Notes under the pieces: generated by a model
Told to the model about the DNA's origin: nothing
Database searches by the model: none
Seen by the model: the letters and a program-made list of their open reading frames with translations, nothing else
Position numbers and translations under genes: made by a program
Virus record (IMG/VR): IMGVR_UViG_2698536437_000003
Location: 1 to 6,533 of that record
Direction: 5' to 3' (one strand)
DNA length: 6,533 nt
From: a virus
Lineage: Duplodnaviria > Heunggongvirae > Uroviricota > Caudoviricetes
Shown here: one piece after another, positions 82-6,220 of the stretch
Layout of the letters: every line of letters starts with the position of its first letter
Position numbering within the stretch: the first letter of the stretch is position 1

Positions 82-270
82 TCACGAGGACTGAAGTTTC
101 TCGCAATTAAAATTTATCAGTTTTACTTTCTGCTCTCTGGAAACGCCTGCTTCTTTTTTACCTGAGAGCATTTTTTCGCATTCTGATTTCGTTAGTTTAG
201 ATTTTGAATATCTTGTCCAGTTAGTAGGAGTGCCACCTTCCTTTTCAATTGTAGCGGTAATTTTATACAT
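82..270 (-). CDS. small hypothetical prophage protein (62 aa), in the position ydaC occupies downstream of ralR in Rac-type prophages
   Basis: ORF-track ORF 82..342 (86 aa) contains an internal ATG at 268-270 preceded by GGAGG with a 5-nt spacer. That ATG overlaps the ralR stop (ATGTATAA) at 263-265. The first 24 codons of the 86-aa ORF overlap ralR in another frame, so the shorter start is preferred. Product not recognised; placement is by synteny only. Confidence 0.5.
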   Translation of the reverse strand: MYKITATIEKEGGTPTNWTRYSKSKLTKSECEKMLSGKKEAGVSREQKVKLINFNCEKLQSS

Positions 271-469
271 GAACGCCTCCATTAATATTTTCAGTGGTTC
301 GTTTATCCCATCTTTCGAGCGCTTCTTTTTCACTTCCACCATAGCCAGTTCGGGATTCGCATCCGTTGCATTTTGCCCGGTAATATCATGAAATGTCTTT
401 CACCGTTACTGATGGACAACCACAAAACGGACATGGTTTAACATCGTCATATCTCAAAGTTTTTGTCAT
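263..469 (-). pseudogene. ralR: ralR/lar restriction-alleviation protein (Lar family zinc ribbon), interrupted by an in-frame TGA at 386-388
   Basis: Minus-strand translation from ATG 467-469 gives MTKTLRYDDVKPCPFCGCPSVTVKDIS-stop-YYRAKCNGCESRTGYGGSEKEALERWDKRTTENINGGVHV-stop (TAA 263-265). The two Cys pairs (CPFCGC ... CNGC) are in one frame on either side of the TGA. This matches my memory of the 64-aa K-12 RalR, which has Gly where the TGA sits. A TTG at 455-457 corresponds to the K-12 start position. Too short to appear in the ORF track. Confidence 0.6.
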
Positions 470-513: not shown

Positions 514-1318
514 TTATTCTTCTGAATTATCGATTACACTGTATTCCCCGGTTAATACAGAGGAGTCTGCCGGATCGATTGTCAGTGGTTCCTTTTCATC
601 CATTGATACTGCACGCTGGATTTCAATTGAGACAGGCAGGTATTTAAACAGGCGACGAATAGCCGTTTTTTTTGCCATTTCTTCCCAGTGAGTTACCCAC
701 GGCCCGTTATTACCTGCCTTACTCTGGCTGCGCACCAGTTCAATCTGTTTGCGCGTCATAACTTCAAACTGAGTCCCTCCGTCTTTCAGTCTTGCGACAG
801 CATAGACGTGGGTAAGCATCTTCGTTTTCTCCCGGGCGGTGTATTAACTTTTCATCAAGGCCAAATTCGAAGCTAAACTCGTCACCTTCACGGACAACAC
901 GGGCTGACAGGCTGGCGATTTGACCAGAACGGCGAGCCAGATCAATCATGCCGCGATAGCCAATGATTAGCTGAACGTTCTTTTTACCGCTCTTTTCGTT
1001 TTTATTACCAAAAGGCAGTAAATATGCGTGGCCAAGGGCGCTACCTGGCTCAAGGCCGAGCTGTGAACACTGTACGATTGCACTGACAAAACTCATAGTG
1101 TCACAGTTTCCTAACGCTGGAACGTTACGAATTTCTGTGGTGGCGATACGGATCATACGTTCAGCCGTCATATGGCGTGGAAGAGCTGCTGCCAGTTGCT
1201 CTTTCATTGATGGCTGGTTAATAAAACTAATCACGTCGTTATTTTTAACTGCTGCTGGTGCACGGTTTCCCTGAGTTTTTTGCAGATCGGCTTTTGCGAT
1301 TGGTGGTTGCTTAGTCAT
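514..1318 (-). pseudogene. recT: recT (RecT-family single-strand annealing recombinase) disrupted by a frameshift near 814
   Basis: Two same-strand ORFs in different frames: 764..1375 (real start [13 protein letters not shown]... at ATG 1316-1318) and 514..819 (..THVYAVARLKDGGTQFEVMTRKQIELV..SVIDNSEE). Together they cover about 269 codons, the intact RecT length. The upstream frame runs into ...GENEDA and then nonsense (YPRLCCRKTERRRDSV) to a stop at 764. Only 1 nt (814) separates the last conserved codon of one frame from the first of the other, consistent with roughly a 5-bp deletion. Confidence 0.8.
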
Positions 1319-3983
1319 TTGCATATTCCTTAGCCCAGCGGGGCAGTGATAACGTCTTAATAGCTGGCCATTCATCGGTATTGAGGCAGTCAGCCAGGGT
1401 CCTCAGATTGCGGTGATATTCCTGCTGGCCTGCCAGTTTTGCTTCTTCGCCCATCATGAAAATCTCAACCGGATAACGTCCGCATTCAACAGTTGTGCTG
1501 GCAACCAGAAAAACGAAAGTTGGCAGCACACCAAACTGTGCTTCATAACCGTCACTGTAGAATGCATCCTGAACGTGATAGCGGTAGTCGTAATAAGCCG
1601 TTTTGAATCGTTGAATATCCGCTGTGGTTTTCACGTCCATGATCCAGTGAAATTCAGGAATAATTTTGTCCGGACGGCACCGACACAAAATTCCTGTTTC
1701 CGGATCTTCCCAGTAAATTGATGATTCAGCGTGTCCGGCGCTTTCCACAAGCCATTGACCCAGCGGCAAAGCCATAACGCTCTGATACATGAGTTCAATT
1801 TTCCGGCCTTCTTCGGCAGTGATAACCGTTTTTCCTGTGCTTGCGCATTCCATCAGAAACGCTTTCTCTTCTTCTTTTCCGGCGTTTGTACGGCGGTTAA
1901 ATTCAGGTGCTACGATAAAGCGGTTACTGAATTCTTCCGGTTCAAGTACACGGCAGTGGAAAGCGGTTCCTAAATCGAGCGTTTTTGTCTTTGTGGTGTC
2001 CACAGGGGCATTTTTACGCCACAAATACAGCGCCGGAGTATCAGTAATGTCGTCGAGCTGAGACTTACTGACACCGGGACCCGCGTGGTAATTCTCATTC
2101 GAAATTCCGTAATAAATACCAGGCTCTATGTCTCCTGCGATTACGGGATCTGCGACTTCGCCAGTTTCATCACTGCAATCGCGATGCAGATCGCTGCCAG
2201 CATTCTCATTGTGCGGATGTTCAGGGCCTTCCATTTCCTCCGGCTCTTTTTCCTGAGATTCATCCAGATTTTCTTCATTAAAGGTTTCCTGATACGTTGC
2301 GTCGCCCATCACCGCACCACAGTCAGGGCAGTTATCCCCGCCAGTCTGACCGCAGGCATTGCAGACTATTTCCGGTTTCTGTTGCACTACTGGTTCAGGT
2401 TGTTTCACATCCGGGCTGGTTTTTACAGTTTCTGGCGTGTTTTGTTCCGTTTCTGGCTGGTTCTGGTACACAGAGTCGCGAGTCTGGATCCCCTTTACCC
2501 ATTTCGGATCGTTCGGGTCGCTAATCCCTTCAACGAACTCACCACGCGAAGCAGCCAGTAATTTGTCTGCATCGACAGGATTTTTGGGCGGAATGTTTTT
2601 CCGTGTTTCATGGAGTTCTGCCCGCAGTTTCTGATATTTTTCATCAACAGAATTTACCTGTGACTGAGCATCCAGCGGCTGCGTGTCCTGATGATGTTCA
2701 GTTGCATCCGGTTCCACTGTTTCAGCCGTTGCCTGTTCATCTGCCATTGCGCAATATGGTTGCGGTTTTTCTTCATCATCCTGTTTTTCTTCTTCTGTTA
2801 CACGCTGCGGCATCGGGGCAGAGGAACGACCGCAGGCAATATCCACGATTTCCGGATCAGGGTTGGCATGATCAGTTTCAGTCAGTACTTTGTTCAGATA
2901 TTCAGTGACGTGCGCGGGGATGACCTCGATCCCAATTGGTGCTTCTTTCACGGACGCAACCACGATGGCGCGGGAATAATCCAGCCCGCCAGGCATGGTG
3001 ATGAATTTGTCGCGGAAAACAGAAAAGGGCGGTTTATTTTCAGCGATAATTTCCTCAATGCGTTTAGCGTGTGCCGGATGAAGGTTATAGATGTCCACGT
3101 CCATTGAACGGGCCAGAATGCCAGTGGCTACGTCGCGGGCCAGCGACGCCTGATCATGAACGAAACCTTCGCCGCGATCGGTAAGGTTCCCGCCGCCTGC
3201 ATTAGCACCGGAATCTGTGCGAGTGATGCGTGAAACACGATTCCCTTTTCGCCATTCTTTTGTTAGAAGACCGCGATCAATGTGTTCGGTGTCCAGCCAG
3301 GCTGAAATGAAATTCTTAAATTCATAGGGCTGATGTTTTTTCGTGATAGAGAAAACTGCCTTAATTGCATCAGTCAGGCGGAGCAGGGCGGCATTATCCA
3401 GAGTTGTCGGTTCTGCCATGCCGCGTATGGCCAACAGCAGATTCTGGACATAGCTGTTTTCCTGATCCATCTCAAGAGCGGTAATGTGTTCGCGTTGTTT
3501 ACGGGTGGCATGATGCAGGTATTTCCGATCCCCGGCCGCATACGTAAAAATGTGCAGAAGACGCTGTGTGAACCGCAAAGTGGCTACAGAGACTTCGCAA
3601 TCCTGGCAATCCCCGTGGGCGTCTGCCTGCGCGTTTTCTTCCAGGCCTCCCGCCAGTTCTTTGGTTTCCTGAGCATTATCCTGGTGGTGAACGTCGTCTG
3701 GTGCTGCTCCCGGTTTTAGTTCCCAGGTCATGGAGTCTTTGCTGAGTTGATAGCGTTCACTCCAGGTAAAATCGATCTCACCTTCAGGGGGCAGGTCATT
3801 AACGACAGGAAAATTCGTGGCAACAGCTTTAAAATAGTTGCTCAGTTTTTTACCTGACTTAACGATCAGGTAGTCCAGAGTGGCACAGGTTGATTCAAAA
3901 TCGTCGCTTGCCCACAGGACGACGTCAGGCTCACCGGATGATTTTTTCGCTTTCCGTAAAAGGAAGAGTGGTTTTGTGCTCAT
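1311..3983 (-). CDS. recE: exodeoxyribonuclease VIII (RecE), 890 aa, apparently intact
   Basis: Continuous 890-codon ORF. The C-terminal third (..[24 protein letters not shown].. EDPETG.. IMDVKT ..) matches the RecE nuclease domain with a PD-(D/E)XK-like D..E/D..D-x-K arrangement. The central region is acidic/low-complexity with a CNAC-x7-CPDC motif. The stop TAA (1311-1313) overlaps the recT start ATG (1316-1318) as ATGACTAA. Confidence 0.9.
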
Positions 3984-4054
3984 TGTTTTTTAACCTCAAC
4001 TCAGATTAAAATTCGTTTTGTTCAGTGAATGATCTTGCCGGATACACACTGTTC

Positions 4055-4079
4055 ATAGCCTGCGCCATACGCAGGCTAT
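4055..4079. other. perfect 10-bp inverted repeat (ATAGCCTGCG-ccata-CGCAGGCTAT) in the racC-recE intergenic region
   Basis: Arms 4055-4064 and 4070-4079 are exact reverse complements with a 5-nt loop. It lies 6 nt downstream of the racC stop and about 70 nt upstream of the recE start. On the plus strand it is followed by TTCTTTC; on the minus (mRNA) strand no U-tract follows. Confidence 0.4.
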
Positions 4080-4084
4080 TTCTT

Positions 4085-4360
4085 TCAGATTTCACCGTTT
4101 AATTTCATTGCAATCAGAGTTGCCAGAAATCCGGCTTTTTTTTCTGCGGGCAGATTCTTTCCGATGTGAACCAGGCACATTTTTGTGACACCTTCATCAA
4201 GTGTTTTTACGTTGCCTGATGGACCATCGATATCAACCACAGTGAATGGGGTTTCTTTATTTTTTGTTTTAATTACGTAGCCAATGCGCTTTCCTTCCAG
4301 ATTCACCTCGTGAACAATGTCATCGGTAGTTACAACAGTGGTTTCATAATTGGTAATCAT
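4085..4360 (-). CDS. racC: RacC-like small prophage protein (91 aa)
   Basis: ORF-track ORF 4085..4408. The internal ATG at 4358-4360 is preceded by GGAGA with a 5-nt spacer and gives MITNYETTVVTTDD..., 91 aa. Size and position immediately upstream of recE match K-12 racC. Identification is by synteny and size, not verified by alignment. Confidence 0.7.
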   Translation of the reverse strand: MITNYETTVVTTDDIVHEVNLEGKRIGYVIKTKNKETPFTVVDIDGPSGNVKTLDEGVTKMCLVHIGKNLPAEKKAGFLATLIAMKLNGEI

Positions 4361-4434
4361 GTTTTTCTCCTGAATTAAGGTTGAGCGAATCCCTGCCATT
4401 TCTGGCATAAATTCAGTTTCGAATAGTCAATTAA

Positions 4435-4611
4435 TTAAAGTTCGTGTGCCATCTGGTCTTTTTCGGCACAAGCTTCACTGCAATATTTTCTCGGTTCGTC
4501 TTTTGATAAAGTCCCGTGCATGAAGTGAAGCATTCTTTCTATAGTTTTGCTTTCTTCAACGTCTTTTTTGCAAAGGTGGTAAGCACATTTTATTTTCTTA
4601 GTCGTCACCAT
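4435..4611 (-). CDS. ydaE: YdaE-like small Cys-containing (putative zinc-binding) protein, 58 aa
   Basis: Hand translation of the minus strand: [58 protein letters not shown], stop TAA 4435-4437. Cys at C-x4-C and C-x3-C. Too short for the ORF track. The start ATG 4609-4611 overlaps the kilR stop (4605-4607). Sits between kilR and racC as ydaE does in Rac. Confidence 0.6.
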
Positions 4612-4826
4612 GACTCCGCCTTTACAGGTAAACCATCACGACCGAGGAAGACTTTAATCATGCAGTCAGTAATGCATGTTTTTGTAGTTAGGCTACGAAT
4701 ATAAAGTTTTCGCTTTTTAATATTGTTTGCCGAGGCAATATATGTCCGGCCTTCATGAAGAACATAATCGCCAGGAGTCACGCACTGGCGTGGTATTTCA
4801 TCGGTTCCGAAGTGATGAGCAATCAT
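4605..4826 (-). CDS. kilR: KilR-like cell-division inhibitor, 73 aa
   Basis: 73-aa ORF ([14 protein letters not shown]...). ATG 4824-4826 is preceded by AGGAG with a 7-nt spacer. Size and position upstream of ydaE/racC/recE match K-12 kilR. Function is taken from K-12, not shown here. Confidence 0.7.
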
Positions 4827-4872
4827 AATTATCTCCTTAATAAATTTGTCGTATTAAGAAAATTCCAGAAAA

Positions 4873-5721
4873 CTATTTAATACTCAGCAACTGCTCGACG
4901 GTCATGTTTTTAATTGCGCTTCGGTTTACAAGAGTCCAGCCCTGTTTCTCCAGATAAAGGCGGAAAGTGTCTAGGGTACAGACGAGAGCGTCATCAGGAA
5001 CGGTTTCAGTGAATTCGACGTTGCCGAATTTGTCGAAGCGAACAACCAGAGTGCGCCCATCGCCCGGAATGATTTTGTTTGTGGGAGTGGTATTATTCTG
5101 GCGTAGTTCTGCTTCCATGCGGTCGAACTCAGCGATGTAGGCCTCTTTGAATGCAGCGGCTTTTTTGCCAGTGAAGCCCATCACCAGGAAAACGAAGCCG
5201 TTTTTGGTGATCTGGTAGGCATTATAGGAATTGCCGCGATGTTCGAATTTAACCCGCGAAAAGTTGCTGGTTAAAAAATATTCAGAGCATTCGAGGGATT
5301 CTATTTTTTGGACAACATGATGATGTTGCTTGCCAAAAAACTCTGCGATCGCAATGGATGTAGTTACAGCGCGACCGTTTTCGATGGTTACGTCAGGGTG
5401 AGAAAGGGTAGGGATAGTAGTCATAATGACAGCCTCGATAGTCAGTTTAAATAACTCACCACCAAGGTTTTCCACGACCATAAGGGTGGTGAGACGTACA
5501 GGGGTGGAAATACCGGCGACTACCGAAACCGGCCAGCTTTGCGGCTGCCCTGCACGCCCCACCATAATCTGAATGTGGCTGTGCATTACGCATAAAAAAA
5601 CCGCCTGAGCGCGGTTATGCGCGGTAATCATCATCGGGTTTCCACGCCCGGCACCCGTTTTATAAGGTGCAGGTGCACTATAATTCCACCCGTTCTGGTT
5701 TTCAATAGCTACATTCAACAT
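4873..5721 (-). CDS. Rha-family phage regulatory protein; the full 282-codon ORF is given but the real start may be the internal ATG at 5422-5424 (183 aa)
   Basis: Residues about 100-200 (MTTIPTLSHPDVTIENGRAVTTSIAIAEFFGKQHHHVVQKIESL...NFSRVKFEHRGNSYNAYQITKNGFVFLVMGFTGKKAAAFKEAYIAEFDRME) fit the Rha (Phage_pRha) domain pattern, which is normally N-terminal. ATG 5721 has an AGGTGA SD with a 6-nt spacer; ATG 5424 has GAGG with an 8-nt spacer. The upstream 99 codons have no recognisable domain and contain a terminator-like hairpin. Confidence 0.6.
   Translation of the reverse strand: MLNVAIENQNGWNYSAPAPYKTGAGRGNPMMITAHNRAQAVFLCVMHSHIQIMVGRAGQPQSWPVSVVAGISTPVRLTTLMVVENLGGELFKLTIEAVIMTTIPTLSHPDVTIENGRAVTTSIAIAEFFGKQHHHVVQKIESLECSEYFLTSNFSRVKFEHRGNSYNAYQITKNGFVFLVMGFTGKKAAAFKEAYIAEFDRMEAELRQNNTTPTNKIIPGDGRTLVVRFDKFGNVEFTETVPDDALVCTLDTFRLYLEKQGWTLVNRSAIKNMTVEQLLSIK
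5594..5616 (-). terminator. weak terminator-like hairpin (AACCGC-GCUCAG-GCGGUU followed by U5-7), inside the 5' extension of the Rha ORF
   Basis: Plus strand 5594-5616 is AAAAAAACCGCCTGAGCGCGGTT. On the minus transcript this is a 6-bp stem (4 GC pairs), a 6-nt loop, then a U-run. The stem is short, so this may be chance. Confidence 0.25.
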
Positions 5722-5904
5722 TTTCTCTCACCTTTCATCACCGAAGTGAACTTTGTTGATGCGGTGCCTGGTGCCTCCAGGTGACGTTAACCAGTTAACA
5801 ATTAACGCCGGATATTTCACCCATAACTCTGCTACGAAGGACAATAGCTTTTTAACTGTTCCGCGTGCGCTTAGCCGCATTCACCGCATCACAAAATTCA
5901 CTTT

Positions 5905-5951
5905 AAAAAGGGCGGACATCAGTCGAACTTCAAGAAAAAACTGATGCCGCC
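5905..5951 (-). terminator. candidate rho-independent terminator on the minus strand: 12-bp stem with one bulge, followed by CUUUUU
   Basis: Arms 5911-5923 (GGCGGACATCAGT) and 5940-5951 (ACTGATGCCGCC) are reverse complements apart from one bulged A, with a 16-nt loop. On the minus transcript the stem is followed by CUUUUUAAAG (plus 5901-5910). Confidence 0.45.
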
Positions 5952-6105
5952 AAGACTACACACAGCAGTGTTGTTATTCACAACCGGAGGCGCACTCCCA
6001 CCATTTAAATTTGACAGACAAGACCGACTCTTTATGGATACCGGAAATGCGCCTTCGTGTTATGCCCGGTTTTATTTCACCACCTCCGGGCTTTGGTGGC
6101 CTCGG

Positions 6106-6210
6106 CTATACCAAGCTTTTGGTATACGTCATGGCGGTGAACGTTCCATCCTGGTTGGGGAACACGCCACACACTAGGGATTCGTTGTTGCCGAGGTCGA
6201 TTTTTTGCAT
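6106..6210 (-). CDS. small hypothetical ORF (34 aa), in the position of ydaF in Rac; possibly truncated
   Basis: Hand translation: MQKIDLGNNESLVCGVFPNQDGTFTAMTYTKSLV, stop TAG 6106-6108. ATG 6208-6210 lies 10 nt after the stop of the upstream ydaG-like ORF, with no clear SD. Not verified by homology. Confidence 0.3.
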   Translation of the reverse strand: MQKIDLGNNESLVCGVFPNQDGTFTAMTYTKSLV

Positions 6211-6220
6211 TTTGCGAATC

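Follow-up and report, generated by a model that had tools for sequence, protein, structure and literature searches.

The window analysed here is a stretch of 6,533 nucleotides whose minus strand corresponds to the left arm of a Rac-like cryptic prophage (Table 1). Its gene order matches that of the Rac prophage of Escherichia coli K-12 (RecT 269 aa, RecE 866 aa), with a DUF1187 gene at the position of rcbA, followed by ralR, recT and recE. Further along come kilR, ydaE and ydaF, which close relatives also have at this place in their Rac-like elements. The window differs from K-12 Rac in that RecE is an 890-aa variant, kilR and ydaF are separated by a Rha-family gene with its isrK and C4 RNAs, and ralR contains an internal stop. 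The consecutive ralR, recT and recE genes, with recT overlapping the 3' end of recE by 8 nt, identify a Rac-type recET module. In near-identical complete genomes the same arrangement continues into xisR, intR and ttcA; the contig of the window ends before these genes, and the ttcA/intR/xisR context is taken from those relatives only.

Table 1 Features of the window (positions are those of the 6,533-nt stretch)
Feature	Position	Strand	Remarks
DUF1187 gene	82-270	-	
RalA antitoxin sRNA	86-264	+	Full-length match to Rfam RF02694 (218 bits; gathering score 170)
ralR toxin pseudogene	263-457	-	In-frame TGA (...VKDIS*YYRAK...); sequence identical in the 13E0725 clade; PGAP 'internal stop'
recT, 3' part (codons 171-269 and stop)	514-813	-	300 nt identical to 13E0725 recT; all base-called
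NN of the source record, shown as AA; apparent recT frameshift junction	814-815	.	7 nt in relatives (ACCAGTG or CCCGGTT)
recT, 5' part (codons 1-167 plus bases 1-2 of codon 168)	816-1318	-	503 nt identical to 13E0725 recT; all base-called
Heptamer C CCG GGA	834-840	-	
recE (exodeoxyribonuclease VIII), intact	1311-3983	-	890 aa; Pfam Exonuc_VIII and PDDEXK-like domain
Hypothetical gene, ydaE, kilR	beyond recE	-	
44-aa ORF, following ydaF		-	
Rha-family gene, preceded by isrK and C4 RNAs	4873-5721	-	282 aa; RefSeq 'Rha family phage regulatory protein'
C4 antisense RNA (Rfam)	5482-5569	-	
isrK RNA (Rfam)	5594-5670	-	
Second NN, shown as AA; apparent ~92-nt deletion shortening ydaF	6113-6114	.	94 nt in relatives, same flanks
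ydaF (DUF1391), 5' part up to the gap	6115-6210	-	Equals the first 96 nt of 13E0725 ydaF

RecE is a 5'-3' exonuclease acting on double-stranded DNA, with RecT as its annealing partner, and recombination of linear double-stranded DNA requires the two together (PMC5021808). The recE gene of the window has the same length as that encoding the RefSeq-annotated intact RecE of strain 13E0725, and the two proteins differ by two amino acids (A647T and I839V).

In contrast to recE, recT does not read as a single frame in the window. The earlier note had located a change of frame within positions 764-846, which is indeed present in the text of the window. The open reading frame from the native recT start (1318) encodes RecT residues 1-168 followed by 16 unrelated, out-of-frame residues and a TGA at 766-764. 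Residues 171-269 are encoded in the +1 frame; immediately past a TAA at 846-844, this frame opens and stays open as far as the native stop at 514. The counts of 168 N-terminal and 99 C-terminal codons, with 1 nt where 6 would be needed, were exact, and the assignment of the two genes as recT and an adjacent, intact recE of a Rac-like prophage was correct. The coding strand of the window has GAT GC-TT-ACC CAC at this place, compared to GAT GCA CCA GTG ACC CAC in 13E0725 and GAT GCC CCG GTT ACC CAC in K-12. Between GATGC and ACCCAC there are 2 nt in the window and 7 nt in intact alleles, a net difference of -5 nt between 813 and 816. Nucleotide alignment with K-12 recT, the check proposed at the outset, returned this same discrepancy of 7 nt against 2 nt.

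The two pieces together cover the RecT family domain (Pfam PF03837). The N-terminal piece matched profile positions 1-105 (E 2e-29) and the C-terminal piece positions 114-187 (E 2e-22), and RecT of an intact relative matched positions 1-187 (E 1e-56). The frame break thus falls between positions 105 and 114 of the 198-position profile, in the interior of a single RecT domain. A RecT homologue with a solved structure is that of Listeria (7UB2).

The origin of the junction became evident from the deposited record. The whole window corresponds to contig LGBK01000163.1 of assembly GCA_001281965.1, a draft genome of E. coli O157:H7/NM. At 814-815 this record has NN (it reads gatgcnnaccc), where the window has AA on the plus strand and hence TT on the coding strand. 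A second NN is present at 6113-6114 in the context ccaaaagcnnggtatagcc / aaagcNNggtat, and there, too, the window shows AA. A comparison by program of 2,093 nt (the first 1500 and the last 593) gave differences solely at these two sites, in each case an A in the window for an N in the record. For positions 1501-5940, no N was noticed in a comparison by eye, and the RecE translation was exactly equal. Consistent with this, neither of the 30-mers spanning the recT and ydaF junctions matches LGBK01000163.1, and the recT 30-mer does match the window. The annotation of the record contains no called protein spanning recT or ydaF, and in exact-protein look-ups neither of the two recT fragment proteins was on record as a called protein. 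From the comparison of window and record we infer that four N characters were turned into A when the window was prepared, a step that is undocumented. The change of frame thus exists in the text of the window, but it is nothing that has been observed in the DNA of the organism.

The isolates of the LGBK set are E. coli O157:H7/NM of ST11, sequenced on a MiSeq (2x250) from Nextera XT libraries to a coverage of 60x or more, and CLC Genomics Workbench 7.0.3 was used for de novo assembly (PMC4609726). The reads of the isolate behind the window belong to BioProject PRJNA285020. As in other draft assemblies with N runs at joins, the flanks of the NN in this record match intact relatives perfectly and the length of the run is nominal. 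Unlike in such assemblies, the Ns have been replaced by A in the window, which hides the gap and creates false junctions. CLC puts short N runs at scaffold joins, although nothing specific on this practice was found in a literature search. Relatives have 7 nt at the two Ns in recT and 94 nt at the two Ns in ydaF, so that the number of Ns gives neither the length nor the reading frame of the missing sequence.

To what extent the called bases agree with an intact gene can be read from strain 13E0725. All 803 base-called positions of recT (503 + 300) are identical to the intact recT of this strain (WP_000166318.1) and of its clade (F6294, F3113, FWSEC0003 and the OkiPb strains). Placing ACCAGTG in the gap reproduces the 269-codon recT of 13E0725 exactly. 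The K-12-type heptanucleotide yields the same protein, and any fill with a length of 3k+1 gives one open reading frame. Compared to K-12 recT, recT of the window is about 97% identical at the DNA level with three amino-acid differences. Within the 7 nt of the gap itself, Rac alleles differ at three positions (ACCAGTG vs CCCGGTT).

Overall, 13E0725 and the window are 99.9% identical, with three substitutions outside the two gaps; the record lacks called bases for 7 nt of recT and 94 nt of ydaF. The corresponding segment (for the 13E0725 type, NZ_CP020092.1, 2855401-2862030) measures 6,630 nt in 13E0725 and in a small number of further strains, cattle-associated or STEC, against 6,533 nt in the window. 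All three base-called differences fall in recE, at 1469, 1473 and 2045. The first two lie in a stretch that reads TAT CCG GTT in the window, the common state in K-12 and O157, and TAC CCG ATT in the 13E0725 clade; they include the I839V exchange. The substitution at 2045 is A647T and was absent from six other alleles compared. The resulting RecE (A647T with V839) is KOZ51875.1 / WP_053902232.1 and is known from one contig only, LGBK01000163.1 itself.

At the second site, the window shows a net deletion of 92 nt relative to 13E0725, at 6112-6115, and ydaF is reduced from 50 to 34 codons. The apparent 34-aa ydaF product stems from the NN gap, an artefact identical in kind to that in recT. With N written as A at each of them, the two junctions share the reading GC|TT on their coding strands.

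As a side observation, the ydaF join (context 6040-6215) displays a false, perfect 8-bp hairpin, TATACCAA-GCTT-TTGGTATA, which includes a HindIII site. A template-switch or quasi-palindrome mutation, considered for this junction on account of the 8-bp hairpin and two 'novel' bases, was rejected, as both are explained by the Ns.

Neither junction was encountered elsewhere. The recT junction was absent from 5,426 complete E. coli genomes, species-representative genomes, JGI metagenome contigs and viral contigs, and the ydaF junction was absent from the same complete E. coli genomes, species-representative genomes and JGI metagenome contigs. Taken as natural history, the window would need two private deletions against one truly private substitution, and each junction would carry two 'novel' bases that are absent from known alleles, which fits poorly.

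Together, the record, the allele comparison and the searches indicate with a probability of roughly 90% that the split of recT is an assembly gap combined with N-to-A substitution and not a real feature. The junction consists of Ns in the record, its flanks are identical to intact relatives, and it occurs in no other sequence searched. A genuine frameshift pseudogene would be marked by a base-called, read-supported indel of a length other than 3n, and at this place the deposited record has NN. The earlier note had allowed for a sequencing or assembly error as a fallback, and this turned out to be the right reading. Its deletion of roughly 5 bp near 814 holds for position and size as text (net -5 nt), but not as a genuine deletion, the junction being NN in the record. 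With respect to K-12 Rac, the apparent recT frameshift counts as an assembly gap and not as a difference in DNA.

The most plausible course of events is that the CLC assembler joined three pieces of the 6.5-kb Rac-like contig over stretches that it failed to resolve. A nominal NN would have been written at each join, one in recT and one in ydaF. The later conversion of N to A during preparation of the window would then have produced a continuous sequence that mimics the loss of 5 nt in recT and of about 92 nt in ydaF. The true DNA most probably has 7 nt at the recT join, giving an intact recT of 269 codons. As judged from sequence comparison, recT most probably lies intact beside an intact recE, as an ordinary recET pair of a Rac-type cryptic prophage. 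The idea that RecE was left without its annealing partner is thus unsupported, as the junction is NN in the record and all called recT bases are those of the intact allele. A chimera of two prophage copies is a possible reason for the break in the assembly graph. As an account of the sequence itself, a chimeric collapse of two prophage copies was rejected, given that two clustered recE positions of the other type are too few for a collapsed consensus.

A clean 5-nt deletion was also considered, in which CCCGG would have been lost from a K-12-type patch GCC CCG GTT. About 30 genomes have this patch in matching local surroundings, and K-12-type states occur close by in recE of the window. The deletion was rejected on the strength of the record, in which the TT of the junction is NN, and the match of the second junction T to the K-12 allele is a coincidence, because N was written as A.

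Conservation of recT bears directly on what the gap may contain. Full-length recT matches were found in 1,631 genomes of the complete E. coli set, and all 55 close homologues sampled span exactly 810 nt in one frame; homologues with a two-frame structure, which the earlier note had named as a refutation of its reading, were looked for and none was found. Between 13E0725 and K-12, recT has accumulated 23 synonymous and 3 nonsynonymous changes, with a dN/dS of about 0.035. Because recT is conserved in length and sequence to this degree, an intact gene is by far the likeliest state behind the NN.

Nevertheless, the gap might conceal a genuine inactivating lesion of the isolate, be it a small indel, a rearrangement or a mixed population, with the failure of the assembler as its symptom; recT would then be a recent, private pseudogene of a decaying cryptic prophage, beside a recE that is still intact. 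We consider this improbable. Rac-type prophages do decay, as illustrated by the in-frame stop of ralR in this contig and its whole clade. Furthermore, E. coli UTAK-6 (NZ_CP157151.1, 2631496-2632906) carries a truly frameshifted Rac-like recT, base-called over 811 nt in a complete genome, which PGAP calls 'frameshifted'. In UTAK-6, however, recE and ralR have internal stops ('internal stop' in PGAP) and the module is truly decaying, whereas in the window recE is intact and the site in recT is N. Loss of recT could be tolerated, given that the recET operon of K-12 is reported to stay under full repression unless sbcA mutations activate it or lambda captures it (PMC3945230), and a true indel or a heterogeneous culture might itself explain why assembly failed at this site. 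Against such a lesion, no base call backs it, and all 803 called bases equal the intact allele. The other NN replaces 94 nt of ordinary sequence, which indicates that gaps in this contig need no underlying mutation. The constant length of recT among the sampled genomes and its low dN/dS also argue against it. A related and similarly improbable variant is that two co-resident recET alleles or a mixed population exist in the isolate and that the gap hides this heterogeneity or a private recT lesion; it would offer a reason why the assembler stopped at precisely the 7-nt patch with three differences between Rac alleles.

If a hidden lesion existed, a clinical O157 isolate would harbor a RecE-only module. 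Even then, losing recT would be nothing unusual for a cryptic prophage in decay, because the K-12 operon is silent under the repression described above.

It is also conceivable in principle that a two-frame recT is functional, either through a programmed +1 ribosomal frameshift or through separate halves that reassemble. The C-terminal frame begins with an ATG at 819-817 that is preceded 9 nt upstream by a Shine-Dalgarno-like GGGAG, which would suit a split protein, and three rare arginine codons (AGA CGG AGG) occur in the N-terminal frame shortly before its stop, which would suit a +1 shift. Shifting at these codons, however, would replace about 12 core residues, and the break falls within a single RecT domain, which disfavors separate halves as well. 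The overlap zone (846-764) contains one heptamer of the X XXY YYZ type, C CCG GGA, and no prfB-like CUU UGA motif. The earlier note had seen no slippery heptamer; this one does lie in frame, 24 nt upstream of the junction, but it shifts by -1, the wrong direction, and it also occurs in intact alleles. Neither a conserved two-frame architecture nor a +1 shift-prone site in the overlap was found, and none of the 1,631 genomes with full-length matches provided a two-frame homologue. We therefore agree with the initial judgment that a programmed shift is unlikely: the homologues are single-frame and the sole heptamer is of the -1 type where +1 is needed. As the junction bases themselves are NN in the record, a functional two-frame recT is effectively refuted, and we assign it hardly any weight. 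A -1 shift at the heptamer would lead to a TGA after 17 codons, which is probably meaningless.

With an assembly gap as the preferred explanation, the biological importance of the site is minimal, since it belongs to a well-known locus, the recET pair of Rac-like cryptic prophages. The practical consequence concerns method. When Ns are rewritten as ordinary letters in windows from draft assemblies, false deletions, frameshifts and neat-looking hairpins arise. Scans of such windows should carry along a mask of the Ns in the source, without which gap joins will turn up again and again as reported pseudogenes.

Some observations concern the prophage beyond the gaps. The recT gene of this 'cryptic' prophage type is under strong purifying selection, though recET is reported silent in K-12. 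As far as sequence comparison can tell, this conservation suggests that recT is put to use, either under some condition or in the course of transfer.

The lesion of ralR is of a different nature from the two gaps: its in-frame stop is shared by the 13E0725 clade and is genuine. The RalA antitoxin RNA, encoded on the opposite strand, persists after the death of the gene for the type I toxin RalR.

Finally, the isrK and C4 antisense RNAs are located inside the 5' third of the 282-aa open reading frame annotated as a Rha family phage regulatory protein, on the same strand. The Rha domain occupies residues 120-203 of this frame, and a Pfam Phage_ASH match at residues 14-109 covers the same nucleotides as isrK and C4. 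The true coding sequence of the Rha/antirepressor protein may start at an internal methionine (MTTIPTLSH...), in which case the upstream part would be an RNA leader of the P1 c4 / Gifsy-1 IsrK type.
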